The position numbers and the translations under genes are program-made. From Bacillota bacterium (lineage in GTDB: Bacteria > Bacillota > Desulfotomaculia > Desulfotomaculales > Desulfotomaculaceae), in the NCBI GenBank assembly GCA_040754595.1, contig JBFMCH010000065.1, positions 6,270 to 70,269 of the forward strand: 64,000 bases of DNA, given 5' to 3'. The notes under the pieces are model-generated. The model did not search any database, was not told the origin of the DNA, and saw only the letters and a program-made list of their open reading frames with translations. The first letter of the stretch is position 1. Each line of letters starts with the position of its first letter. Positions 1,283-13,422 of the stretch are shown piece after piece.

Positions 1283-1660
1283 ATGAGCTTTTTGTCTTAC
1301 CCGGAGGGCACAGGAGCAGGTACAGCAAACAACGAGTTTTTCCGGCAATTAATAAGCCATCTGACAAACCATGCCGGCATTCAAAGGTCGGCAAAATTGA
1401 AAGGGGTTGTGCAAAGGGCGGTTGCAGCCGGCGATTTGTGTACCGGCTATCCTCACCTTAACAGGGATGTGGTCATGGCCGGCATGCTGCTGTTCCCTCT
1501 GATCAGGGAAGGATACCTTCCGGGCGGCCTGCAGGGGGCTATGGGGGTTCTTGGGGGTATGGAAGTGGAGGAGAGATTTAAGATCCTGCAAGTTCTCGTG
1601 TCTGCGCAAACGGATTTTGCCCGGGGCGAGGCAAAGATAGTCCGATATTTCTACCATTGA
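1283..1660 (+). CDS. Hypothetical protein resembling a degenerate HD-domain helical bundle
   Basis: YPHLNRDVVMAGMLLFPL resembles the YhaM-type HD segment (LxRDLLxAGxLLHD) with HD replaced by FP. Confidence 0.55.
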   Translation: MSFLSYPEGTGAGTANNEFFRQLISHLTNHAGIQRSAKLKGVVQRAVAAGDLCTGYPHLNRDVVMAGMLLFPLIREGYLPGGLQGAMGVLGGMEVEERFKILQVLVSAQTDFARGEAKIVRYFYH

Positions 1661-2469
1661 CGGTGAATGGAGTGATGGTATTGGATAAAAATCGTTTTAA
1701 AAAAGCAAAACACAATCATTCCTGGAATCTGGAAATCGTATTAAAAGAATTACGGCAGCACAGCGATCAAGGCGGTGTCTCGCTGGAGTACCTGGCCCTG
1801 GCATGCGGGGTAAGCACCAGGCAGATCTACCGCTATCTCAGAGAACTGCAAAGCTTGGGATACGAAATTCTAAAGACGGTTTCTCATGATTCAGAATGTT
1901 CCGGCGGTTACACCCTGAAGGAACCTGATTCGGAACATCACGAAGAATTGCCGCTGCTTAATCTGCTGGATGACTTGGAAAAACAAAAAAATCAAATCCT
2001 GCTTGCAAAAACCTTTATCAAAGAATTGTTAATTCGTTTATGGATGAACAAGCTGGGCGTGGTTTTACCCTTAACCCTTCCCATCCTGGCATTTGATCAT
2101 GATGATGCGGTTACTGTGAGCCGGCAGACACTGGTTATCTCTGATCCGTCGGTGGGGGTCTACGAGGATGTGAGGATCAGGGTATCCGCCAGGGTAATCA
2201 GCAATGTTACACAAAGTTTGGCCGCTGAGATTATTGCCAAACAAAAACAAAAAGACGGCTGGTTTAACGTTCAATTAAAGACCAAAAGGATCCGGGAAAT
2301 GACCGGTTTACTGACGCAATGGGGCAGCGAAATTGAGGTTGTCGAACCCGGTTGGCTCAGGCACAGGATGTTGGAGAATTGCAAAGCCCTTCTTCATGCC
2401 AACTGGTTGAGAAAACTGGATAAAACCAATCTTTGTGTTCAGGGTAGTAAATTTCTAGTTAGTTATTAA
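1657..2469 (+). CDS. YafY/WYL-type HTH regulator with WCX-like C-terminus but no evident WYL core
   Basis: LALACGVSTRQIYRYLRELQSLGYEI (HTH_11-like); LLTQWGSEIEVVEPGWLRHRM (WCX-like); start could be ATG 1675. Confidence 0.7.
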   Translation: MTVNGVMVLDKNRFKKAKHNHSWNLEIVLKELRQHSDQGGVSLEYLALACGVSTRQIYRYLRELQSLGYEILKTVSHDSECSGGYTLKEPDSEHHEELPLLNLLDDLEKQKNQILLAKTFIKELLIRLWMNKLGVVLPLTLPILAFDHDDAVTVSRQTLVISDPSVGVYEDVRIRVSARVISNVTQSLAAEIIAKQKQKDGWFNVQLKTKRIREMTGLLTQWGSEIEVVEPGWLRHRMLENCKALLHANWLRKLDKTNLCVQGSKFLVSY

Positions 2470-2770
2470 AGAATTCATTGATGAGAGAGGGGGTGGCGAA
2501 AAGAAGTTCAGGAAGATGAACCTTGGTTGTTTTTCGGAAGAAATGTACGTTTGAACTGTTTTCAGAGACGCGATTATGCATGACATGTACCTGCTGAAGG
2601 ATTTACAGAAGACTTATTCCAACAAGTTAACCGGTTGATCATGAAATGTTCAAGCACATTTGGTATAAAACTAACTTGGGAAGCACTTTGTTTCACAAAC
2701 AAGCAAACGAAGCAGCGTATTCTTTACAGCACCTTGTCTTTAACTAAATTGATCTTTGGGGGCTATCGTT

Positions 2771-4492
2771 ATGAACATTTTAAAGTACGTACCGATCTTG
2801 GATACCTTAAAGAACTACGATAAGCGGGACTTTCGATTTGATTTAATCGCTGCGCTTACCGTAGCAGTGGTCGCTCTGCCGCAAACCATGGCCTACGCCA
2901 TGATTGCCGGTGTCCACCCGGCTTACGGCCTGTATTCGGGGATTGTCCTTACCATCATCGCATCTTCCTTCGGCAGTTCCCACCAACTGGCCACCGGGCC
3001 CACCAACGCCATTTCTCTGCTCATTGCAGCTTACATGGTGCCCTTTGTGGGGCAGGATAATTTCTTTGCCAACCTGTTCTTACTGACCTTTCTGGTGGGC
3101 GCCATCCAGTTTTTAATGGGTGTGTTACGGCTGGGTTCCCTGGTCAACTATGTATCCCACGCAGTTATCGTAGGCTTTACCGCCGGCGCCGGTATTATCA
3201 TTGCCATGGGACAGCTCAACAACCTGATGGGGATCAAGCTGCCCCAGGGGCATCTTTCCAGTATCGATAAAGTGGTCGCCTGTTTCCAAAACATTGATAA
3301 AATGAACTACGTTGCCTTTGGCATCGGACTCTTTACCATTGCGATCATCCTGATCTGCAGAAGGATTAATAAAAACCTGCCCGGTGCGTTATTGGGGGTC
3401 ATTTTCTCGGTCATTTTGGTGATGGTCCTGGGGCTGGAAAAATACGGTGTAAAAGTGGTCGGGAAAATTCCCCAGGCCGTTCCACCTTTCAGCATGCCCA
3501 ATTTTAATCCTTCAGCCATTGCTGATTTAGGCACCGGGGCGCTGGTCATTGCCATTATCGGGCTGGTGGAGGCGGTATCCATCTCCAAGGCCATTGCCTC
3601 CAAAACACTGCAAAAAATCGACCCCAACCAGGAGTTTATCGGCCAGGGCATGGCCAACATGGGCGGCGCCTTCCTAAGCAGTATTGCGGGTTCCGGTTCC
3701 TTCACCCGTTCGGCCATCACCTACCAGAACGGGGGCAGAACCAGGCTGTCCGGGGTGCTGGTGGGTTTCATCATTCTGCTGGTATTAATCTTCTTTGCAC
3801 CCTTTGCCAGGTATATCCCCAATGCTAGTCTGGCCGGGGTCATCATGGTGGTGGCTTATTCCATGATTGACAAGAAGGCCCTGGTGAAAGTGTTGAAAAC
3901 CAACCGCAATGATGCCGTTGTATTGCTGGTAACCATGCTAACCACCATCTTTGCGCCTGAACTGGAACAGGCCATTTACGCCGGTGTGGCCATTTCTCTG
4001 ATCCTCTATCTGAAAGACTCCGGCGTGGCCAGCGTGAAAACCCTGGCTCCCGTCAGAGCCAGTGACGGGAGATTTGTGGAGCAGACCATTAACGGCGAGA
4101 GTCCCTCCATTGCCATTTTCCAACTGGAAGGCAACCTTTATTTCGGCTCTGCTTCCGATTTGGAAAAGAAGCTAACGGATAATTATTCGGATTCCCAGGT
4201 ATTTCTGATCCGTTTTAAAGGTGTTTCGGTGATCGACATTACTGCCCTGGAGGTTATTGAGGCCTTCATTAACAGGGCCCTGGGTGGTAACAAGAGAGTC
4301 ATGATGTCAGGTGTTACACCGAAAATCTATAAAATGCTGGAGAAAATGCACATTGTTGATCACGTGGGCAAAGACAATATCTTTATGGAAGATGATGAAG
4401 TATTCGCCACTTCCGGCAAAGCCCTGGACGAAGCCAGTTCCTTTGTACGTAATGTCAGCTACAGCTCGCAGGAAAGAGCTGTCCAGGCATAA
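2771..4492 (+). CDS. SulP/SLC26 family anion permease with C-terminal STAS domain
   Basis: DLIAALTVAVVALPQTMAYA, GLYS, ATGPT, PNQEFIGQG, GSFTRSA motifs; LEGNLYFGSA STAS; ATG 2771 chosen over TTG 2756. Confidence 0.92.
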   Translation: MNILKYVPILDTLKNYDKRDFRFDLIAALTVAVVALPQTMAYAMIAGVHPAYGLYSGIVLTIIASSFGSSHQLATGPTNAISLLIAAYMVPFVGQDNFFANLFLLTFLVGAIQFLMGVLRLGSLVNYVSHAVIVGFTAGAGIIIAMGQLNNLMGIKLPQGHLSSIDKVVACFQNIDKMNYVAFGIGLFTIAIILICRRINKNLPGALLGVIFSVILVMVLGLEKYGVKVVGKIPQAVPPFSMPNFNPSAIADLGTGALVIAIIGLVEAVSISKAIASKTLQKIDPNQEFIGQGMANMGGAFLSSIAGSGSFTRSAITYQNGGRTRLSGVLVGFIILLVLIFFAPFARYIPNASLAGVIMVVAYSMIDKKALVKVLKTNRNDAVVLLVTMLTTIFAPELEQAIYAGVAISLILYLKDSGVASVKTLAPVRASDGRFVEQTINGESPSIAIFQLEGNLYFGSASDLEKKLTDNYSDSQVFLIRFKGVSVIDITALEVIEAFINRALGGNKRVMMSGVTPKIYKMLEKMHIVDHVGKDNIFMEDDEVFATSGKALDEASSFVRNVSYSSQERAVQA

Positions 4493-4640
4493 TTCGAGAC
4501 CCGGGAGTAACATGGTAATAAAATAAAAAAATATTATACATTTTTTAATTAATTATAACAATCCAGAAGGTTAAAAAATCTTTTTGAATTATTTTTCGTC
4601 ATTACAAGTACGAAAATAAAATAAGTAAAGAGTTCGTAAC

Positions 4641-4670
4641 AAAAAAGCGGCCTGGCGGACCGCTTTTTTT
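4641..4670. terminator. Bidirectional intrinsic terminator after sulP
   Basis: AAAAAAGCGG-cctggcgga-CCGCTTTTTTT. Confidence 0.8.
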
Positions 4671-4833
4671 AATGCTTCATAAAATTGAGATAAGTAATTG
4701 TATGATATAGATAGCAGGAGATAAATAGAAATATCTTACTTGAATGAAGCTGTACAAAATTTCACGTAACAGTTATTTTAAGACAAAGCAAAATGTCACC
4801 TCGTTTTGCAATGTTTAAAAATGTTGGGCAGAC

Positions 4834-4918
4834 AAGGTGCGAAGGAAGACTTGGCATTGGGTAGGCCGGCACAGTGTACGGAGATTTTTCCGCGCGCGTG
4901 TGCTGGCCTTTTCGTTTC
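4834..4918 (+). ncRNA. Candidate riboswitch/attenuator leader, copy L0
   Basis: AAGGTGCGAAG-gaaga-CTTGGCATTGGGTAGGCC overlaps terminator stem AGGCCGGCACA(4863-4873)/TGTGCTGGCCT(4899-4909) followed by a U-tract. Confidence 0.55.
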
Positions 4919-4948
4919 GGCCACAGTATAGATTAAGGGGGTAGAAAA

Positions 4949-5224
4949 ATGTACGGAACCTCTAAGTGCGGCAAATGTGCCAACAAGGAAACCTGTGAAA
5001 TTCGGTTGCACCTCGGCAGCATCATCCAAGAAGCCATCAAGAATGCGGAAACGGAAGTAAAACGCCTGGCGCCCAAGGAAATTGACTATATGATTTTGAC
5101 GGACATTTCGGTGATTCCCACCCGCTGCGAGAACTATGTAAGTCTGGACGGTTTGAAAGAAGAACAAAGTGAAAGGGAAAGTTTGTTTTTCCTGGGCAGA
5201 TCCCTGGCGCCTACGGCCATATAA
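4949..5224 (+). CDS. Hypothetical 91-aa protein with CxxC-x5-C...C motif
   Basis: RBS GGGGG, CGKCANKETC plus a distal Cys, followed by a terminator. Confidence 0.7.
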   Translation: MYGTSKCGKCANKETCEIRLHLGSIIQEAIKNAETEVKRLAPKEIDYMILTDISVIPTRCENYVSLDGLKEEQSERESLFFLGRSLAPTAI

Positions 5225-5246
5225 AAAATACAAGAAAGATGTCAAC

Positions 5247-5275
5247 GCTCCTGACAAATCAGGGGCTTTTTATTT
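5247..5275 (+). terminator. Intrinsic terminator
   Basis: GCTCCTGA-caaa-TCAGGGGC-TTTTTATTT. Confidence 0.7.
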
Positions 5276-5523
5276 GACAAAGGGACTCTTTAAACCGCCA
5301 ATTTCAATGCTATCAGGAGTAGTCAGTAGTGACAAAAAAATTTATTCCCGTGGAAACATGAGCAGAAGGGCAATTGTGAGAGTACAAGTGCTGAAAATCA
5401 CAAAAACAAGGAAATATCGCCCTGTACAATAATTTCTTGTTTTATTACGCTAATAGCACAATGACAGAACAATTTGTCAATAAGGGAGTTTAACGGTTGT
5501 CATAAAAGACAGGGGGCTGGTTT

Positions 5524-5886
5524 ATGTCACAGTCCGCAATGGAAAAACGCATATGCGATGAATTTATCAAGTTCCAGAGAGAACTCGTTGGGCGGGGACC
5601 GGAGTGTACCAGGGTAATGATCTGCCGGGATATGGTGATCATCCGGTCAACCGGCGTCCTGACCAAGGAGGAAAAACATGTGAGCGGAACTCGCAAGGGC
5701 AGATCTCTGGTAAAGCAATTAAGAATGGAGTTAAGAGAAACGTACATTGAACGAATCGAAGACGTTATCCGGGAGATTACACAGTGCAAAGTCATGAGCA
5801 GCCATGGGGATATCAGTATCAGAACCGGTGAACATATCGAAGTCTTTATCCTGGATGCCGATTTGGAAAAAAAGTTTAGAAGATAA
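5524..5886 (+). CDS. DUF2294 / MpsC-like family protein (copy 1)
   Basis: KFQRELVGRGPE...DMVIIRSTGVLTKEEK...LVKQLR...ITQCKVMSSHGDISIRTGEHIEVFIL is typical of DUF2294. Confidence 0.85.
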   Translation: MSQSAMEKRICDEFIKFQRELVGRGPECTRVMICRDMVIIRSTGVLTKEEKHVSGTRKGRSLVKQLRMELRETYIERIEDVIREITQCKVMSSHGDISIRTGEHIEVFILDADLEKKFRR

Positions 5887-5912
5887 CCGGCAGGTTGAAT
5901 TCTTGTTTGATG

Positions 5913-6045
5913 AAGCTGCAAGGGTTCGCGTTGTCGGATCTCTGAAAGGTTGGTAGGCCTTACACAAAGCTGAACCTTGGTGTTGGTAGACCAGCGTTAT
6001 CAATGGGCAGGAAACTGCTTGATTGGTCGCTGGTCTTTTTATTTT
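5913..6045 (+). ncRNA. Candidate riboswitch/attenuator leader, copy L1
   Basis: GCAAGG...CCTTGGTGTTGGTAGACC overlaps terminator AGACCAGCG(5988-5996)/CGCTGGTCT(6028-6036) with a GAAA tetraloop and U-tract. Confidence 0.6.
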
Positions 6046-6161
6046 CACCGGAAGGGGGTGGGTTACCGGCAGGATTGATTTTTCAAGAACTGCCTTGTTT
6101 ACACTACTATAAACATAAGCAAGCACCTTAGTGAAAAAAAGAAAGAGAGAGGTGTGGTAGG

Positions 6162-7613
6162 ATGAACAAAAACAGTAAGCGTATTTTCTTTATATTATTG
6201 GGGTTAGGTTTGTTTTTAGCGCTTTATTTTGCTCCCCAATTCGGTCCTGCTGTGGACCCGTCCGGAAAAGCCTTTGAATTGTCTCAGGAAGGTAAGGCAG
6301 CCATTGGCTTATTCCTGCTGGCAGGTATTTGGTGGGTCTTTGAAGTGACCCCCATCGGTGTCACCAGTATTGCCATCGGTGTTTTCCAGGCCTTATTTTT
6401 CATTCGTCCGGCCAAGGATGCTTTCCGTGATTTTATGGATCCCACGGTCATGTTTATTTTAGGTTCCCTATTGATCGGTTTAGCATTTACCAAGGCCGGC
6501 GTCACCAAGAGAATCGCCTATAAAATGTTGGATGTGGTCGGTGAAGATACCCGGAAGATTTTATTAGGGGTATTTGTCGTAACGGCATTATTAACCCACA
6601 TTATGGCCCATACGGCGGTAGCCGCCACCATGTTCCCGATTTTGGTCGCCATCCTGGCCCTTTACGGCGAAAACTCCGACGGCAGGCCCACCAAGTTCGG
6701 TAAGGCTTTGTTTATCGGGATGGCCTATACGGCTGGTGCGGGCAGTATCTGTACCCTGCTGGGCGGCGCCCGTAACCCCGCGGCGGTTGGTTTCTATAAG
6801 GAATTTACCGGGATTGACGTATCCTTTATTGAATTCACCACCCACCTGGCCCCTTTTGGCTGGGCAGCGGTTTTACTGGTCTGGGCTTTACTGCTGGTTA
6901 TCTACAAACCTGAAAAAACCAAGATTCCCGGCTTACGGGAAAAGGCTCGTGCCGAATATGCCAAACTGGGACCTGTCAGCAAGCAAGAGATTTTCGTTGG
7001 CATTGTCGTCTTCTGTGCTTTGACCATGCTTGTGCTGCAGGCAATTATTCCCGCCTTAAAAACCATGGACCGTTCTGTTCCGCTGCTGGCTGCAGGATTA
7101 CTGTTCTTCCTCTCGAATATACTGACAGTGGAAGACTTGGAGAAGAAAATTCCCTGGAACATCGTCCTGCTGTTCTCCGGCGCCATGAGTATTGGTTTCT
7201 GCCTGTGGAAAACCGGCGCTGCTCAATGGATTGCCGTTAAGTGGCTGGCGATGCTGGTAAATGCTCACTGGCTGGTATTTGTACTGGGGATCTGTTTCCT
7301 GGTGCTGATCATGACCAACTTTATCATGAACGTGGCGGCCATTGCCATCACCTTGCCCGTGGCCCTGGTCATTGCCAAATACTTAGGAGTCAACCCTGAA
7401 TTGATTTTGTACGGCGCTACCGCTATGGCCGGGATGCCCTTCCTGCTGCTGATCGGCGCCGCTCCAAACGCCATGGCCTACGAGTCCAAACAATTTACCA
7501 CCGGTGAATTCTTTATGACCGGTATTCCCGCCAGTGCCATGATTCTCTGCCTCCTGGTCTTGATGACCTTTACCTACTGGCCTTTGATCGGCATGTCAGC
7601 GCTGATTAAATAG
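6162..7613 (+). CDS. DASS/SLC13 family Na+:anion symporter (copy 1)
   Basis: Polytopic membrane protein; AHTAVAATMFP, TLLGGARNPAA, IPWNIVLLFSGAMS, NFIMNVAA, LIGAAPNAMAY are SLC13-type motifs. Confidence 0.88.
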   Translation: MNKNSKRIFFILLGLGLFLALYFAPQFGPAVDPSGKAFELSQEGKAAIGLFLLAGIWWVFEVTPIGVTSIAIGVFQALFFIRPAKDAFRDFMDPTVMFILGSLLIGLAFTKAGVTKRIAYKMLDVVGEDTRKILLGVFVVTALLTHIMAHTAVAATMFPILVAILALYGENSDGRPTKFGKALFIGMAYTAGAGSICTLLGGARNPAAVGFYKEFTGIDVSFIEFTTHLAPFGWAAVLLVWALLLVIYKPEKTKIPGLREKARAEYAKLGPVSKQEIFVGIVVFCALTMLVLQAIIPALKTMDRSVPLLAAGLLFFLSNILTVEDLEKKIPWNIVLLFSGAMSIGFCLWKTGAAQWIAVKWLAMLVNAHWLVFVLGICFLVLIMTNFIMNVAAIAITLPVALVIAKYLGVNPELILYGATAMAGMPFLLLIGAAPNAMAYESKQFTTGEFFMTGIPASAMILCLLVLMTFTYWPLIGMSALIK

Positions 7614-7694
7614 CACCCCATCTCTGATACACCTGGAGCTGCCAGGTGTATCAGAAATTTGTCCTATTTCATTTAACGAGCGAGGGGATACATT

Positions 7695-8978
7695 GTGGAA
7701 GCAAACAGCCAGGTTATTTTTGCCACAGCGGTGTTTTTAATCACCTATGCCGTTATTATTTCGGAAAAGATTCACCGGGCGGTGATTGCGCTCCTGGGGG
7801 CCATGGTCATTATCCTGGGAGGCGTACTCCATCAGGAAAAAGCGGTAGAAGCGGTTGATTTCAACACCATTGGCCTGCTGGTAGGCATGATGATTATCGT
7901 AGGTGTTGCCAGAAATTCCGGTGTCTTCGAGTATCTTGCGGTCTGGGCTGCTAAAAGGAGTAAGGGTGAGCCGCTGGCCATTTTGGTATCTTTATCCGTC
8001 ATTACAGCCTGTTTGTCCGCTCTTCTTGATAACGTAACAACCGTTTTGTTGATTGTGCCCGTAACCTTTTCCATTGCCAGGGCACTGGAAATTAACCCCA
8101 GCCCCATTTTGATCTCAGAAGTTTTGGCATCCAACATCGGCGGAACCGCAACACTCATTGGTGATCCCCCGAATATTATGATTGGTTCTGCCACCGGCTT
8201 GGGGTTTATGGACTTTGTGATTAATCTTACACCGGTCATTATTGTGATTATGGCAGTTACAGTCGTTCTCCTTAAGATGATTTATCGAAAACAGTTGATT
8301 GTACGGGAAGAATTAAAGCAAAACATTATGGATTTAAACCCGGAAAACGAAATTAAAGACCCGGTATTGTTAAAGAAATCTTTGTTTGTCATCGCTTTAA
8401 CCATTGGTGGCTTTTTACTGCACCAGTACGTTCACCTGGAATCGGCTACCATCGCCCTGGGGGGGGCGGCCCTTTTACTTTTAATTACCGGTGATGATCC
8501 GGAGCATGCCCTGGCAGCCGTTGAGTGGCCCGTCATCTTCTTCTTCGCCGGACTGTTTATCCTGGTGGGCGGTCTGGAGGAAGTGGGGGTCATTGAATGG
8601 ATTGCCAGGGAGTCGCTGAAACTGACCGGGGGCGAATTGCTGCCCACCGGCATGTTAATCCTGTGGTTATCAGCCATTGCCTCGGCCTTTGTGGATAACA
8701 TTCCCTTTGTGGCCACCATGATCCCGTTAATTCAGGAAATGGGCAGGTTGGGCGGCATTGCCGACCTGAACCCGCTCTGGTGGTCTTTATCCCTGGGTGC
8801 TTGCCTGGGCGGCAACGGCACCATTATCGGCGCATCTGCCAACGTTGTGGTGGCCGGCATGGCAGAGAAGCGTGGCGTTAAGTGGACTTTCGTCGGTTTT
8901 ATGAAAGTGGCCTTTCCTCTTATGCTTGTTTCTGTCGTTATTTCAACTGTCTACCTGTATTTCTTCTTTTTAACCTAA
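7695..8978 (+). CDS. ArsB/NhaD family (ion transporter superfamily) permease (copy 1)
   Basis: SALLDNVTTVLL, SNIGGTATLIGDPPNIMI, SAFVDNIPF, GACLGGNGTIIGASAN. Confidence 0.88.
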   Translation: MEANSQVIFATAVFLITYAVIISEKIHRAVIALLGAMVIILGGVLHQEKAVEAVDFNTIGLLVGMMIIVGVARNSGVFEYLAVWAAKRSKGEPLAILVSLSVITACLSALLDNVTTVLLIVPVTFSIARALEINPSPILISEVLASNIGGTATLIGDPPNIMIGSATGLGFMDFVINLTPVIIVIMAVTVVLLKMIYRKQLIVREELKQNIMDLNPENEIKDPVLLKKSLFVIALTIGGFLLHQYVHLESATIALGGAALLLLITGDDPEHALAAVEWPVIFFFAGLFILVGGLEEVGVIEWIARESLKLTGGELLPTGMLILWLSAIASAFVDNIPFVATMIPLIQEMGRLGGIADLNPLWWSLSLGACLGGNGTIIGASANVVVAGMAEKRGVKWTFVGFMKVAFPLMLVSVVISTVYLYFFFLT

Positions 8979-9017
8979 TCATCTGGCAATCTCAGGTATT
9001 AGGGGAGTGATGTCCTC

Positions 9018-9461
9018 TTGGAAGTACCGGATATTCTAAATGCGCCGGCGAAACGCGGCAAGCATAATCATGAGGCCAACCTGGGGATTGTACTAAGGGA
9101 ACTGAGGGACAGCACTCAGGCAGGAGGGGTAACTCTCCAGCACCTGGTAAATGTATGTGGAGTCAGTAAGCGCCACATTTACCGTTATTTGAAAGAATTG
9201 GAGGAGATGGGTGTACCCATAGAAAGGCCGCAGATTATCCAACCGGGCAAGTTGGGCGTGGGGCGCTATAAATTAAAGGACAGTCAGGCCAATGAAGCGA
9301 TGGGTGAGACCATGCTGCTGGCGGCTTTAAATCAAATGCTGGAACGGTGCCATATTTACCACAATCAGATGGTGTTTTTAAAGGGTGTCATTGTTCAGAG
9401 CATGGCCATCCGTTACGGATTTAAGCTGCCACCGCATCTGATGATGCAGGGGGAACAGTAA
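9018..9461 (+). CDS. HTH regulator, short paralogue of the 1657-2469 N-terminus
   Basis: NLGIVLRELR..QAGGVTLQHLVNVCGVSKRHIYRYLKEL vs NLEIVLKELR..DQGGVSLEYLALACGVSTRQIYRYLREL. Confidence 0.75.
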   Translation: MEVPDILNAPAKRGKHNHEANLGIVLRELRDSTQAGGVTLQHLVNVCGVSKRHIYRYLKELEEMGVPIERPQIIQPGKLGVGRYKLKDSQANEAMGETMLLAALNQMLERCHIYHNQMVFLKGVIVQSMAIRYGFKLPPHLMMQGEQ

Positions 9462-9492
9462 TCTCAAAAATTTAATGAAAGTGTTAGAACGG

Positions 9493-9530
9493 AACCCTTT
9501 CTCGGATTGCTGAGAAAGGGTTTGTTTTTG
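9493..9530 (+). terminator. Intrinsic terminator
   Basis: AACCCTTTCTCGG-attg-CTGAGAAAGGGTT-TGTTTTT. Confidence 0.75.
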
Positions 9531-9877
9531 TTAAGAAAATCTTAAAGTTGCGAAACAAACATTAATATGAAGAAAGACTGAGTTATTTTACAAGAAACAC
9601 AGGTGCAAGTAAATATATCGGGCTGTACAGAATTAATTTAAATCTGTACTTTAGAGACACAAAAGTTTGTCATTACACGACATTAGATTTTTGTCACAAA
9701 AGACAAGACCTTATTCAGTTGTGCGTTGAGATAAATGGAGAAATTTTTTGACATACCATGAGGAGGTTTGTGTTTATCGTAACAAACTTTTGCCTGCAAC
9801 TCCGAGCACCCTTTTGACACAAAGCACCTGACCGATAAGCCTGTATTTGGAATTCAAACTGAAAAGGGGGAGGGTAC

Positions 9878-10246
9878 TTGAGCCAGCAGACATTACTGGA
9901 AAAACAAATATGCGAGGCCTTTATAAAATTCCAACGGGAACTGGTGGGGCGGGGACCGGAAACCACAAAGGCCATGATTTGCCGGGATATGGTGATTGTC
10001 CGTTCCAAAGGGGTCCTGACCAAAGAAGAAAAACATGTCAGCAGCACCCGGAAAGGCAGATCCCTGGTGAAGCAGCTAAGAATGGAGCTTCGAGAGTCTT
10101 ACCTGGAGCAAATTGAAAACATGGTTGCTGACCTAACCAAATGCCAGGTTGTCAGCAGTCACGGGGACATCAGTATCCGAACAGGGGAGCAAATAGAAGT
10201 TTTTATCTTAAACACAGACTTAGAAAGAAAAATAAAAACAAACTAA
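9878..10246 (+). CDS. DUF2294 / MpsC-like family protein (copy 2)
   Basis: Closely similar to 5524-5886; TTG start with GGGGAGG RBS. Confidence 0.85.
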   Translation: MSQQTLLEKQICEAFIKFQRELVGRGPETTKAMICRDMVIVRSKGVLTKEEKHVSSTRKGRSLVKQLRMELRESYLEQIENMVADLTKCQVVSSHGDISIRTGEQIEVFILNTDLERKIKTN

Positions 10247-10264
10247 CTGGCCTGAGACTTGGAT

Positions 10265-10390
10265 AAGGTCGCAGGCGAGTTAATAGGGTGGAATGTTGGT
10301 AGACCGGATGCGAAGCCGTAAGGCTTGGTATAAAGTAAACCAACGTTATCTTGGTTCATGATGGCCAAAATAGCGTTGGTTTTATTTTTT
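10265..10390 (+). ncRNA. Candidate riboswitch/attenuator leader, copy L2
   Basis: AAGGTCGCAGG...GTTGGTAGACC...GCGAAGCC-gtaa-GGCTTGGTATAAAGTAAACC overlaps terminator AACCAACGTTA(10338-10348)/TAGCGTTGGTT(10371-10381) followed by a U-tract. Confidence 0.6.
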
Positions 10391-10542
10391 GAGGGAGGGG
10401 AGGGCTGTACCCGGGCTCAGTCGCACGCAGCATCAGTAACAGCTTTACATACAGCACCTTTTACCGCTTCGTGAGTTGGAAGAAAAAATAAATGAGTGTT
10501 ATAACGTTAAGCACCTTTATTATTTTAGTCGAGGTGATTGCT

Positions 10543-11991
10543 ATGAGTAGTGAAGTAAAACGGTATTTCTTTGTGGTTCTCGGATTTGCTGCATTGTTAT
10601 TATTTTATTTTATGCCGTCCCTGGACCCTGCGGTGGACCCCATGGGCAAAAGCTTTGAACTTACACAGGCCGGTAAAGCCGGTCTGGGGCTGTTCCTGTT
10701 AGCAGGGATCTGGTGGGTTTTTGAAGTGGTTCCCATTGGTGTAACCAGTATTGCCATCGGCATTTTACAACCTGTATTTGGCATTCGTCCTGCAAAAGAA
10801 GCGTTTCGGGATTTTATGGACCCCACAGTCATGTTTATTTTAGGTTCACTGCTGGTAGGGCTTGCCTTTACCCAGTGCGGCATTACCAAAAGGATCGCCT
10901 ATAAGATGCTGGTGATTGTCGGCGAAGACACCAGAAAGATTTTGCTGGGTGTTTTTGTCCTGACAGCGCTGTTAACTCACGTCATGGCTCATACCGCTGT
11001 AGCAGGCACCATGTTTCCCATCTTGATGTCCATTTTGGCGCTGTATGGCGCTGAAGCGGGGAAGCCCAGTAAATTCGGTAAAGCACTGTTTATCGGCATG
11101 GCCTTTGCCGCCGGTGCGGGCAGTATTTGCACGTTGATGGGCGGGGCCCGGAACCCTGCAGCTGTCGGCTTCTTTAAAGAATTTACAGGACAGGATGTCA
11201 GCTTTTTAGAATTTTCCGCAGCCCTGGCGCCCTTTGGCTGGGCCAGCGTTTTTATGGTGTTCTTCTTAATGATTACCCTTTTTAAGCCTGAGAAACTACA
11301 GGTGCCCGGTCTACGCCAGCGCGCCCAGAACGAATTGGATAAATTAGGTCCCATTACCAAACAGGAAATTTTTGTACTTAGCGTGGTTACCATTGCCCTG
11401 TGCACCTTAATTTTCCAAAAGTTTATCCCGGCACTGAAGGGTATGGACCGGTCCGTGCCTTTGCTGGCAGCAGGCTTAATCTTCTTTATTACGAAGGTGC
11501 TTACTGTAAAAGAACTGGAAAAATCCATCCCCTGGAACATCATGCTGCTGTTCTCCGGGGCTATGAGTATCGGTTTTGCTCTATGGCAAACCGGGGCTGC
11601 CGAATGGATGGCTGTCAGCTGGCTATCCCTCATTAAAGATGCCCCCTGGTTGGTGTTCCTGCTAGGTATTTCCTTCCTGGTACTTATTTTAACAAACTTT
11701 ATTATGAACGTAGCGGCCATTTCCATTTGTCTGCCCGTCGCTCTGGTTATTGCCAAATACCTGGGCGTAAACCCGGAAATCGTTCTGTACTCTTCCGTAG
11801 CCATGTCTGGGATGCCTTTCCTGCTGTTGATCGGCGCCGCTCCCAATGCCATTGCTTACGAGTCCAGGCAATTTACCACCGGTGAGTTCTTTGTCACCGG
11901 TATCCCGGCAAGTTTAGCCATTCTCGCCATGGTGGCAATCTTCTCCTTAACCTTCTGGCCCATTATCGGCATTCCTGCTGTTCTTCACTAA
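10543..11991 (+). CDS. DASS/SLC13 family Na+:anion symporter (copy 2)
   Basis: Paralogue of 6162-7613; start ATG 10543 with GAGGTG RBS preferred over 10492. Confidence 0.88.
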   Translation: MSSEVKRYFFVVLGFAALLLFYFMPSLDPAVDPMGKSFELTQAGKAGLGLFLLAGIWWVFEVVPIGVTSIAIGILQPVFGIRPAKEAFRDFMDPTVMFILGSLLVGLAFTQCGITKRIAYKMLVIVGEDTRKILLGVFVLTALLTHVMAHTAVAGTMFPILMSILALYGAEAGKPSKFGKALFIGMAFAAGAGSICTLMGGARNPAAVGFFKEFTGQDVSFLEFSAALAPFGWASVFMVFFLMITLFKPEKLQVPGLRQRAQNELDKLGPITKQEIFVLSVVTIALCTLIFQKFIPALKGMDRSVPLLAAGLIFFITKVLTVKELEKSIPWNIMLLFSGAMSIGFALWQTGAAEWMAVSWLSLIKDAPWLVFLLGISFLVLILTNFIMNVAAISICLPVALVIAKYLGVNPEIVLYSSVAMSGMPFLLLIGAAPNAIAYESRQFTTGEFFVTGIPASLAILAMVAIFSLTFWPIIGIPAVLH

Positions 11992-12083: not shown

Positions 12084-12138
12084 ACTCATTGGTGACATGC
12101 GTGGTAATACCTTTAATTTATTTGCAGAGGTGATGTAT

Positions 12139-13422
12139 GTGGAAGGAAACAGCCAGGTCATTTTAGCGACTACCATATTTTTGGTAGCCTATGCCATTAT
12201 CATTTCAGAAAAGATTCACCGTACCGTTGTCGCCCTTTTTGGGGCGATGATTCTGATTATTGCCGGTGTGCTGCACCAGGACGAGGCGATCCATCATATT
12301 GACTTTAATACCATCGGGTTGCTGGTAGGTATGATGATTATCGTGGGAATTACCAGACGTTCAGGGGTATTTGAGTATTTGGCCGTGAAAGCTGCCAAGC
12401 AAAGCAAAGGCGAACCACTGGCCATCATGGTGTCCTTGTCCATTGTTACTGCCGTTTTATCTGCACTGCTGGACAATGTTACCACGGTTCTTTTGATTGT
12501 TCCGGTTACTTTTTCCATTGCCCGGCAGCTGGAAATTAACCCCATGCCCATTTTAATTGCTGAAATTCTGGCGTCCAACATTGGCGGTACTGCCACCCTG
12601 GTTGGTGACCCGCCGAATATTATGATTGGTTCGGCCGTCGGCATCGGTTTTATGGACTTTGTTATCAATCTGACTCCCATTGTAGCTCCCATTATGATTG
12701 TTACAATTTACCTGCTAAAATGGATCTACAGGAAGCAGTTTGTGGTTCGGGAAGAGTTAAAGAAAAATATTTTGGCCATGAATGAAAATGACGAAATTAA
12801 AGATCCCAAACTTCTCAAGCAGTCTCTCATCGTGCTTGCTCTGACCGTGCTAGGCTTCTTATTACACCAGTATGTCCACTTGGAGTCTGCTACCATTGCT
12901 CTGGCGGGAGCGGCTCTGCTGCTGTTAGTGACGCGCCAGGAACCCGAGCATGCTTTAGAAGCGGTGGAATGGCCTGTGATCTTCTTTTTTGCCGGCCTGT
13001 TCATCCTGGTGGGCGGTCTGGTAGAAGTTGGGGTCATTGAGTGGATTGCGGTGCAAGCCCTTGAATTAACCGGGGGCGAATTGCTGACCACAGGGATGTT
13101 AATCCTCTGGCTGTCAGCCATTGCATCTGCCTTTGTTGATAACATCCCCTTTGTTGCGACCATGATCCCTCTTATTCAAGATATGGGACGTTTAGGTGGC
13201 ATTACCGATCTGATGCCCCTGTGGTGGTCCCTTTCCCTGGGTGCTTGCCTGGGCGGTAACGGTACCATTATCGGCGCTTCTGCGAACGTAGTTGTTGCCG
13301 GTATGGCCGAGAAACAGGGTATTCACTTTACCTTCTTAGGCTTTATGAAGGTTGCCTTCCCGCTCATGCTGGTATCCATCGTTATGTCCACGGTGTATTT
13401 GTACTTCTTCTACTTAACTTAA
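12139..13422 (+). CDS. ArsB/NhaD family permease (copy 2)
   Basis: Paralogue of 7695-8978; GTG 12139 with GAGGTG RBS aligns to the paralogue start (MEGNSQ vs MEANSQ). Confidence 0.88.
   Translation: MEGNSQVILATTIFLVAYAIIISEKIHRTVVALFGAMILIIAGVLHQDEAIHHIDFNTIGLLVGMMIIVGITRRSGVFEYLAVKAAKQSKGEPLAIMVSLSIVTAVLSALLDNVTTVLLIVPVTFSIARQLEINPMPILIAEILASNIGGTATLVGDPPNIMIGSAVGIGFMDFVINLTPIVAPIMIVTIYLLKWIYRKQFVVREELKKNILAMNENDEIKDPKLLKQSLIVLALTVLGFLLHQYVHLESATIALAGAALLLLVTRQEPEHALEAVEWPVIFFFAGLFILVGGLVEVGVIEWIAVQALELTGGELLTTGMLILWLSAIASAFVDNIPFVATMIPLIQDMGRLGGITDLMPLWWSLSLGACLGGNGTIIGASANVVVAGMAEKQGIHFTFLGFMKVAFPLMLVSIVMSTVYLYFFYLT

Follow-up and report, generated by a model that had tools for sequence, protein, structure and literature searches.

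What reads the three leader RNAs, L0, L1 and L2, that precede a small gene and two transporter gene pairs in a 64,000-nucleotide (nt) stretch of a Bacillota bacterium genome (contig JBFMCH010000065.1; hereafter the window, whose numbering is used throughout)? The leaders belong to a block at 2.7-13.4 kb in which every gene lies on the + strand. L0 precedes a gene for a 91-residue Cys-rich protein (Cys91), while L1 and L2 each follow a gene of the DUF2294 (MpsC) family (DUF2294a and DUF2294b) and precede genes for a DASS-family symporter and an ArsB/NhaD/CitMHS-type permease (Table 1). A preliminary description of the locus saw in them three copies of a riboswitch-like ON-switch, perhaps related to the Na+-sensing DUF1646 riboswitch. 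Based on comparisons across the genus and with a sister element found elsewhere, we observed that the leaders constitute a single new RNA family, which we term R1, with the architecture of a terminator/antiterminator switch. We further propose, with somewhat more confidence than doubt, that the DUF2294 proteins are RNA-binding antiterminators in the style of HutP and LicT that read these hairpins.

The R1 element is a single irregular hairpin of about 48 nt, and one family accounts for all three leaders. The orthologous leaders of five related genomes share a common plan: box A, GUUGGUAGRC(C); 2-3 nt; a hairpin, RYRC-R-AAG..loop..CUU-G-GYRY; 2-3 nt; box B, GUARRCC; and the terminator. Together, box B and the beginning of the terminator arm are the partner of box A in the closing helix P0 (GUUGGN with N'CCARC) of 6 base pairs (bp), above which come, in turn, a tandem purine mismatch (5'-AG/5'-AR), the 2-bp helix P0b (RC/GU), an internal loop of 3 nt facing 2-3 nt, the helix P1a (4-5 bp), a single R.G mismatch, the helix P1b (AAG/CUU) and a variable loop. 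No conservation is seen in J1 and J2, the sequences of the internal loop. GGUAGRCC and GGUAGACC form a duplex that has almost two-fold symmetry about a central A.G/G.A, and the 3' strand of P0 is at the same time the first 6-8 nt of the terminator 5' arm.

Much of the preliminary description survives this comparison. Its three related leaders are real and, by their orthologues and the covariance model, one family; it had aligned L0 with L2 correctly (GCGAAG..CUUGG..GUARRCC); and its observation that a GC-rich hairpin with a U-tract behind it has the RRCC of GUARRCC at the start of its 5' arm holds in all three. What it overlooked was the 5' strand of the element. Its starting point, 4834, cuts off that of L0 (4823-4833, where box A takes the form GTTGGGCAGAC), and the GTTGGTAGRCC that it had found inside L1 and L2, with a counterpart in L0 as just noted, is the 5' strand of the closing helix, pairing with the terminator arm; the GGUAGRCC boxes are thus two strands of one quasi-palindromic helix and not the tandem or two-lobed form that had been suggested. 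Similarly, its alignment of L1 (GC-AAGG, a long insert, then CTT) gives way to one without a long insert, with the hairpin placed at 5962-5983 by the orthologous leaders.

Judged from nearest relatives, the organism is a Desulforamulus-like sulfate reducer; 11 genomes of the genus, its own included, were compared, and their leaders show the covariation that had been suggested as a check. When 11 sequences were aligned and checked by hand, pairing was found in 96.4% of cells, as against at most 44% with the partner slid, and 6 of the 15 pairs change on both sides; among 28 distinct sequences from the 11 genomes, in an alignment that was fitted to the model and leans towards the structure, 95.4% pair and compensatory changes occur at 8 of the 15 pairs, both helices being supported. 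At the innermost P0 pair, 11 of these sequences change from U-A to C-G, the former being found in the L1 and L2 types and the latter in the L0 type, with GGU becoming GGC in box A together with ACC becoming GCC in box B; a further compensatory change in P0 (G-C to A-U) is seen in two sequences, and in one sub-lineage the P0b pairing RC/GU is replaced by GU/AC. As the changes in box A and box B are complementary and not identical, they reflect pairing in RNA and not direct repeats in DNA. Between the genes, it is mainly the hairpin and the terminator arms that are conserved.

Folded alone, the 5' parts of the leaders adopt exactly the covariation-supported structure, at about -19 to -21 kcal/mol for L0, -15.8 to -17.5 kcal/mol for L1 and -21.6 to -23.3 kcal/mol for L2, and the z-score is -4.8 for the whole L0 leader and -5.0 to -5.6 for that of L2. 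Each leader ends in an intrinsic terminator with its U-tract (UUUCGUUU in L0, UUUUUAUUUU in L1 and UUUAUUUUUU in L2); the first 8 nt of the L0 terminator are common to the antiterminator, and the stem arms of the L1 terminator are conserved in seven orthologous leaders. A simple terminator scan missed all three, presumably because such long, interrupted hairpins exceed its stem and loop limits. P0 and P0b contribute about -10 to -13 kcal/mol, versus -22 to -32 kcal/mol for the competing terminators; the terminator, being far stronger, wins at equilibrium, so read-through needs a clamp that holds P0 closed. With an alternative helix in the terminator 5' arm that is backed by covariation, R1 is a terminator/antiterminator switch, and since P0 is too weak against the terminator and needs holding, the mutually exclusive, ON-type arrangement of the preliminary description stands. 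L0 itself sits in a 5' untranslated region, because a sigma-A-like promoter, located 45-70 nt 5' of it, is kept upstream of the L0-type motif in 10 genomes.

Table 1. Coordinates of the leader elements and of the genes around them in the window
Feature	Position	Strand	Details
HTH/WCX regulator protein	1657-2469		
SulP/STAS anion permease	2756-4492	+	PF00916 and PF01740; directly 5' of L0; context, not motif-gated
Sigma-A-like promoter of the L0 unit	4751-4797	+	TGTACA 4751-4756; 17-nt spacer; TATTTT 4774-4779; GACA-N8-TGTC 4782-4797
L0 antiterminator hairpin	4823-4870	+	R1 model 63.3 bits, E 6e-16; P0 5' strand 4823-4829; AG 4830-4831; P0b AC 4832-4833; P1 4836-4858 (GGUGC-G-AAG-gaaga-CUU-G-GCAUU); P0b GU 4861-4862; AG 4863-4864; P0 3' strand GCCGGC 4865-4870
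L0 intrinsic terminator	4863-4917	+	Stem 4863-4909, -32 kcal/mol; U-tract 4910-4917
Cys91 (91 residues, CxxC-x5-C...C)	4949-5224	+	Cys-rich open reading frame (ORF); sole gene gated by L0
DUF2294a (MpsC family)	5524-5886	+	120 residues; isoelectric point (pI) 9.0; PF10057 at 6.8e-38
L1 antiterminator hairpin	5949-5995	+	R1 model 71.3 bits, E 2e-18; P0 GUUGGU 5949-5954; AG 5955-5956; P0b GC(C) 5957-5959; P1 5962-5983 (ACAC-A-AAG-cugaac-CUU-G-GUGU); P0b (G)GU 5985-5987; AG 5988-5989; P0 3' strand ACCAGC 5990-5995
L1 intrinsic terminator	5988-6045	+	Stem 5988-6036, -27.5 kcal/mol; U-tract 6037-6045
DASS-family anion:Na+ symporter, cargo 1	6162-7613	+	PF00939; NCBIfam TIGR00785 above cut-off
ArsB/NhaD/CitMHS-type permease, cargo 1	7695-8978	+	PF03600; NCBIfam matches all below cut-offs
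HTH147, small HTH protein	9018-9461	+	HTH_11/HTH_36 matches
DUF2294b (MpsC family)	9878-10246	+	122 residues; pI 9.1; PF10057 at 4.3e-38
L2 antiterminator hairpin	10295-10344	+	R1 model 60.2 bits, E 5e-15; P0 GUUGGU 10295-10300; AG 10301-10302; P0b AC 10303-10304; P1 10308-10331; P0b GU 10335-10336; AA 10337-10338; P0 3' strand ACCAAC 10339-10344
L2 intrinsic terminator	10337-10390	+	Stem approximately 10337-10383, -22 kcal/mol; U-tract to 10390
Second DASS symporter, cargo 2	10492-11991	+	Pfam
Second ArsB/NhaD/CitMHS-type permease, cargo 2	12097-13422	+	Pfam

A covariance model of R1 recovers exactly these three sites in the 3.08-Mb genome of the organism (E 1e-14 to 1e-17); across the genus it finds one to four sites per genome in all 11 genomes, and in 151 other genomes of the order it finds none. 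The string TTGGTAGRCC by itself occurs 12 times genome-wide, which is about the number expected by chance, and in placement alone is it non-random, 4 of the 12 copies lying directly after DUF2294 genes. Scanning the whole window with the covariance models of Rfam 15 at gathering score gave no match, and a scan of 4500-10600 at E<=10 returned chance small-RNA and terminator look-alikes only. Membership in the Na+ (DUF1646), Li+ (nhaA-I) and cyclic di-AMP (ydaO) riboswitch families, the candidates of the preliminary description, was rejected, no covariance model matching even at E<=10, and its alternative suggestion of a new motif is the one that Rfam 15 leaves in place. A metagenome scan with the pattern CTTGGTRTN{1,4}GTARACCARCG gave 80 loci, none of which matches R1 and which are chance matches, and literature searches yielded no published description of a DUF2294-hairpin system. 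R1 is a new RNA family whose kind of mechanism is known: a genus-specific, diverged variant with new cargo.

L1 and L2 begin 62 nt and 48 nt 3' of the DUF2294 stop codons, L0 lies about 650 nt before DUF2294a, and a DUF2294a or DUF2294b gene is found in the same block in every motif-bearing genome (11/11). The conserved block reads CBS protein, ORF, HTH/WCX regulator, SulP, motif, Cys91, DUF2294, motif, DASS and permease, followed in some genomes by HTH147, DUF2294, motif, DASS and permease; the duplicated transporter module is kept in 6 of the 11 genomes, the present one counted. Cys91 stands downstream of the L0-type motif in every examined genome of the genus. One genome (G008) has lost the transporters together with their motifs and retains the motif-Cys91 unit and a DUF2294 gene; another (G005) carries a motif copy immediately before its HTH147 homolog, and a third (G006) has a weaker copy (26.6 bits) before an HTH147 paralog on a separate contig (C12). 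Judging from these arrangements, the motif defines a small predicted regulon consisting of Cys91, the transporter pairs and sometimes HTH147.

We then observed that other DUF2294 genes, across Firmicutes, are linked to a widespread sister hairpin, R2, which occurs at Clostridia-type loci and on a contig (C45) of the present genome. Its plan is GUUGGAAG-n-UUAA-AG-GGUA..loop..UAUC-AG-UUAA-n-AR-UCCAACACC, and here too a terminator takes its 5' arm from the 3' strand of the base helix; the pairing holds in 95.5% of cells, with changes on both sides at five pairs. Among 401 genomes sampled across the phylum, a model of R2 has 24 sites, distributed over 17 of them. At 19 of the 24 the hairpin begins 5-40 nt after a DUF2294 gene, and the remaining five are extra copies in genomes that already have a DUF2294-adjacent site. 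Nine loci with the sister motif were scanned against Rfam, without a relevant match. The genes downstream of R2 code for PurE, an archaeal-type phosphoenolpyruvate (PEP) carboxylase, an SbtA-like bicarbonate permease, a GTP-dependent PEP carboxykinase, and CO-dehydrogenase-beta-like, NuoE-like or 4Fe-4S proteins, and most of them use, make or carry CO2 or bicarbonate.

R1 and R2 have in common their place just after a DUF2294 gene, additional copies elsewhere in the genome, a base helix with AG/AR mismatches (GUUGGN-AG...AR-N'CCAAC) set over a terminator, and, about 11 nt above the first, another site of purine mismatch. They differ in the upper hairpin, which is UUAA-AG-GGUA..UAUC-AG-UUAA in R2 but RC-N3-RYRC-R-AAG..CUU-G-GYRY-N2-3-GU in R1, and in cargo, R1 preceding DASS and ArsB/NhaD-type permease genes, Cys91 and an HTH gene whereas R2 precedes the CO2 and bicarbonate genes. 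The R2 model has no match in the window at E<=1, where its upper module is lacking, and the R1 model gives one sub-threshold partial match at the R2-type loci (L020, E 0.72); as neither model detects the other type, R1 is classed as a distinct variant and not as a member of R2.

Both protein-RNA pairs coexist in the present genome. On contig C45 (L004 1489-1960; also L123) a third DUF2294 gene, of c-type, is followed by an R2 hairpin, a terminator and purE, and CCUUGGUAGACC spans the stop codon of that DUF2294 gene. On contig C96 (L001 1106-1500) a fourth, likewise c-type, gene is followed after its stop by only the 5' half of R2 (UAG-UUGGAAGAUGCU) and by a convergent gene; this half-hairpin looks, from its sequence, like the relic of a lost attenuator. 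By eye, a third form can be recognized in Bacilli, GGGAGAUCUUUAAAAG-hairpin-CAGUUAAAGAUAAACCGRCA with a terminator, about 10-110 nt after the DUF2294 stop and before genes for SbtA-like bicarbonate permeases (L026, L033, L034, L049, L053, L055, L056, L058, L068, L078 and L079).

The RNA types are matched by clades of the protein. DUF2294a and DUF2294b are 73% identical, and a tree built from 83 members of the family places the seven R1-linked proteins in a single clade (100/100 support) at the end of a very long branch, with 2.1 changes per site. Another clade (31 rows, 86/85 support) contains every one of the 24 R2-linked proteins, along with seven rows with no motif downstream, and the Bacilli proteins make up a third. 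The window proteins keep the core of the family (GRGP, R35, K64, R67, H-x-D-x-S and TGE motifs) and carry substitutions at four sites where conservation in the other members is at least 90%: W17F, E18Q, A49E and R104H/Q. An AlphaFold2 model of DUF2294a (mean confidence score, pLDDT, 94.3) displays two alpha-beta-beta units and a long central helix. Strict linkage to one DUF2294 clade, together with a sister RNA linked to the sister clade, points to an antiterminator read by a protein.

Taken together, these observations allow us to outline a mechanism, each step of which is conditional. The hairpin of about 48 nt would be transcribed first, ahead of the terminator 3' arm; unaided, it would lose P0 to the terminator, and transcription would stop before Cys91 (L0) or before the DASS and permease pairs (L1, L2). 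DUF2294a and DUF2294b, basic proteins encoded in the block itself, would bind the hairpin, their likely contact being the quasi-two-fold GGUAGRCC/GGUAGACC duplex with its A.G/G.A mismatches, possibly as a dimer on this symmetric duplex; the second purine mismatch, at a distance of one helical turn, would be an additional contact. Once bound, probably while carrying a small-molecule or ion signal, the protein would clamp P0, so that RNA polymerase reads through and the switch is ON when bound. The pI values of 9.0-9.1 lend weak support to RNA binding. As to the signal, the sister class would by analogy point to inorganic carbon; for the window we would guess at sulfate or a related anion, because the cargo consists of DASS and ArsB/NhaD-type permeases beside SulP. 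In sulfate reducers, among them the former Desulfotomaculum ruminis and D. reducens, SulP and DASS are the families proposed as sulfate carriers (PMC5840216). The window pair may represent a branch, confined to one genus, of a widespread DUF2294-hairpin system; elsewhere the system gates CO2 and bicarbonate genes, and its cargo here consists of a sulfate reducer's candidate transporters for sulfate or other anions. The fuller proposal, to which we give equal measures of belief and doubt, is that DUF2294/MpsC constitutes a new family of ligand-sensing RNA-binding antiterminators, with two orthogonal pairs in this genome: an ancestral one gating purE, and a fast-evolved, genus-specific R1 pair in which protein and RNA changed together and which was rewired to candidate sulfate or anion uptake.

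Several further conserved features adjoin the leaders. The layout CTGTACA, 17-nt spacer, TAnnnT, a few nt and GACA-N8-TGTC is common to the L0-Cys91, DUF2294a and DUF2294b units (4750-4797, 5422-5478 and 9623-9671), and a further TGTC-N6-GACA lies nearer each DUF2294 start codon (5498-5511, 9692-9705); the shared GACA/TGTC layout may be either an operator for a common DNA-binding regulator, for which one could consider HTH147 or the HTH/WCX protein, or else an RNA hairpin at the 5' terminus. In the L0 type (4823-4840 and its orthologues), the 5' half reads TGGCAG-N5-GTGC, with the GG-N10-GC spacing of sigma-54 promoters. Directly after each DUF2294 stop there is an extra hairpin (5887-5938, 10249-10277), the stem of which covaries among orthologues (CCGGCA/UGUCGG, CUGGCA/UGUCAG, CUGAC/GUCAG and CUGGUGAC/GUUACCAG); as it is absent from L0 we place it outside the core motif, and it could be a pausing, processing or stabilizing element. 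A conserved purine box resembling a Shine-Dalgarno (SD) sequence, AGG(U/G)GGUG, follows the L1 and L2 terminators (6053-6062; 10392-10405), and about 25 nt 5' of the DASS start codon there is a conserved anti-SD-like CACCU, with the real SD sequence AGGUG after it (6126-6130, 6148-6152); these boxes may form a second layer, acting on translation or mRNA stability.

Among the neighboring genes, Cys91 is the most constant of those gated by the motif, being kept with DUF2294 even in the transporter-less G008; it has its own terminator at 5247-5266, detected by the simple scan, and has no family match in Pfam or NCBIfam. The top NCBIfam matches of the SulP permease are sulP, DauA and BicA, each under its cut-off.

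The alternative that fares best, though we hold it to be unlikely, is a true riboswitch, in which the hairpin itself binds a ligand or ion (an anion-related metabolite or Na+, or in the sister class bicarbonate or CO2) that stabilizes P0, DUF2294 being the first gene of the operon or an accessory. The ON-switch architecture and the covariation would fit it equally well; cargo is coherent for each RNA type, anion transporters for R1 and CO2/HCO3- genes for R2; and no DUF2294 gene precedes L0, the G005 copy ahead of HTH147 or the weak G006 copy. Rod-like aptamers with internal loops do exist in the Li+ and Na+ classes. However, a riboswitch needs no particular gene 5-60 nt upstream, and one is present at 19 of the 24 R2 sites and in every R1 genome; with J1 and J2 unconserved, little is left for a binding pocket; and the RNA type changes with the protein clade, the two types in one genome each lying beside their own paralogs. 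Of the interpretation in the preliminary description, then, a new ON-type switch is supported, while a ligand-binding riboswitch becomes doubtful for a simple rod with clade-strict linkage to DUF2294 and a sister RNA that goes with a sister clade; DUF2294 had, however, been named there as a factor to be tested. We favor a protein reader over a small ligand because of the rod-like shape, the unconserved internal loop and the strict gene linkage.

Less probable still is that another trans-acting factor (HTH147, Cys91, a tRNA or a small RNA) reads the hairpin, or that R1 lacks a dedicated sensor and is a processing site or a passive attenuator. The block conserves Cys91 and HTH147 as well, HTH147 being itself motif-gated at times, and the post-stop hairpins and the SD-like and anti-SD boxes suggest more layers of control at the RNA level. 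Yet neither Cys91 nor HTH147 was seen beside the R2 sites whose flanks were examined, DUF2294 is what the two systems have in common, and Rfam detects no T-box or other known leader signature. We consider very improbable an element acting in DNA, with the GGTAGRCC boxes as operator repeats or the L0-type 5' half as a sigma-54 promoter and the RNA fold as incidental: boxes A and B do resemble direct repeats, the GG-N10-GC spacing is retained in copies of the L0 and L2 types and the genome has rpoN, but the boxes change in complementary fashion and the P1 stem between them covaries, the L1 type has no -12 GC, a sigma-54 start would give a transcript without the antiterminator but with the full terminator, and the conserved sigma-A-like promoter lies 5' of L0, and we judge the spacing and the operator-like boxes to be a by-product of RNA constraints.

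Other points weigh against the proposal that DUF2294 proteins read the hairpins. The case for RNA binding is indirect, being drawn from gene linkage, the match of clade and RNA type, and a pI of about 9, and the linkage could simply mean an operon with DUF2294 among its co-regulated genes and an intercistronic riboswitch as the hairpin. A single genus supplies all R1 sequences, so part of their conservation is shared ancestry, and in several L0-type copies P0 has just 4-5 bp. Many DUF2294 genes, for example those of the Bacillus subtilis group, have no such hairpin downstream. A Foldseek search of the DUF2294 model against the PDB gave no significant relative, the top match being TRAPPC3/Bet3-like (E 0.02, TM 0.43) and the next ones uL23-like, and the HutP, TRAP and CAT domains were not among the structure matches. 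Deletion of mpsC in Staphylococcus aureus gave no growth phenotype, and the gene is dispensable for MpsAB function (PMC6689103); this is compatible with a regulator, yet gives that idea no support.

Should DUF2294 indeed read the hairpins, a Pfam family of no known function would gain one, and a new regulator family would join the few protein-dependent antiterminators, HutP, BglG/LicT, PyrR, TRAP, ANTAR and GlpP. It would also furnish a first handle on how a Gram-positive sulfate reducer controls candidate sulfate or anion transporters, and the sister class would bear on inorganic-carbon sensing in anaerobic Firmicutes. The two diverged protein-RNA pairs in one genome, with four substitutions at conserved positions of the protein and a remodelled upper hairpin, make a ready specificity experiment. 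If the element proves to be a riboswitch instead, it would be a new riboswitch class.

Of the known systems, the Na+ (DUF1646) and Li+ (nhaA-I) riboswitches, which are ON switches coupled to terminators and have simple aptamers, resemble R1 in that the 3' strand of the closing helix is the terminator 5' arm and in their position before ion or anion transporter genes; unlike them, R1 has an obligatory link to a protein gene and unconserved internal loops. Among protein-read elements, the dimeric antiterminators BglG, LicT, SacY and GlcT clamp an imperfect hairpin, the ribonucleic antiterminator (RAT), a quasi-symmetric RNA, and the regulator gene often lies beside one of several RAT sites. R1 is likewise an imperfect hairpin with purine-rich internal loops that overlaps the terminator 5' arm and is too weak alone, but it is about 48 nt long as opposed to about 29 nt, has another sequence and shows no connection to the phosphotransferase system. 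Membership in the BglG/LicT-RAT group was rejected, a Pfam scan of the nine block proteins giving no CAT_RBD or PRD domain. A regulator gene beside its own target site is found also with hutP, licT/bglG, glpP and pyrR. In the hut operon of Bacillus subtilis, the ligand-activated HutP binds the nascent RNA and blocks the terminator; it acts as a hexamer, and what it recognizes is single-stranded UAG repeats. DUF2294 resembles HutP neither in sequence nor in fold, and its target here would be a structured hairpin; membership in the HutP family was rejected on the grounds that DUF2294a and DUF2294b match PF10057 only, that a PDB sequence search with DUF2294 found no relative, and that HutP is missing from the Foldseek matches. 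What the two systems have in common is a small regulator gene directly 5' of an intrinsic terminator that gates structural genes, and this gene order is displayed by the window as DUF2294a-L1-DASS and DUF2294b-L2-DASS and is kept across the genus.

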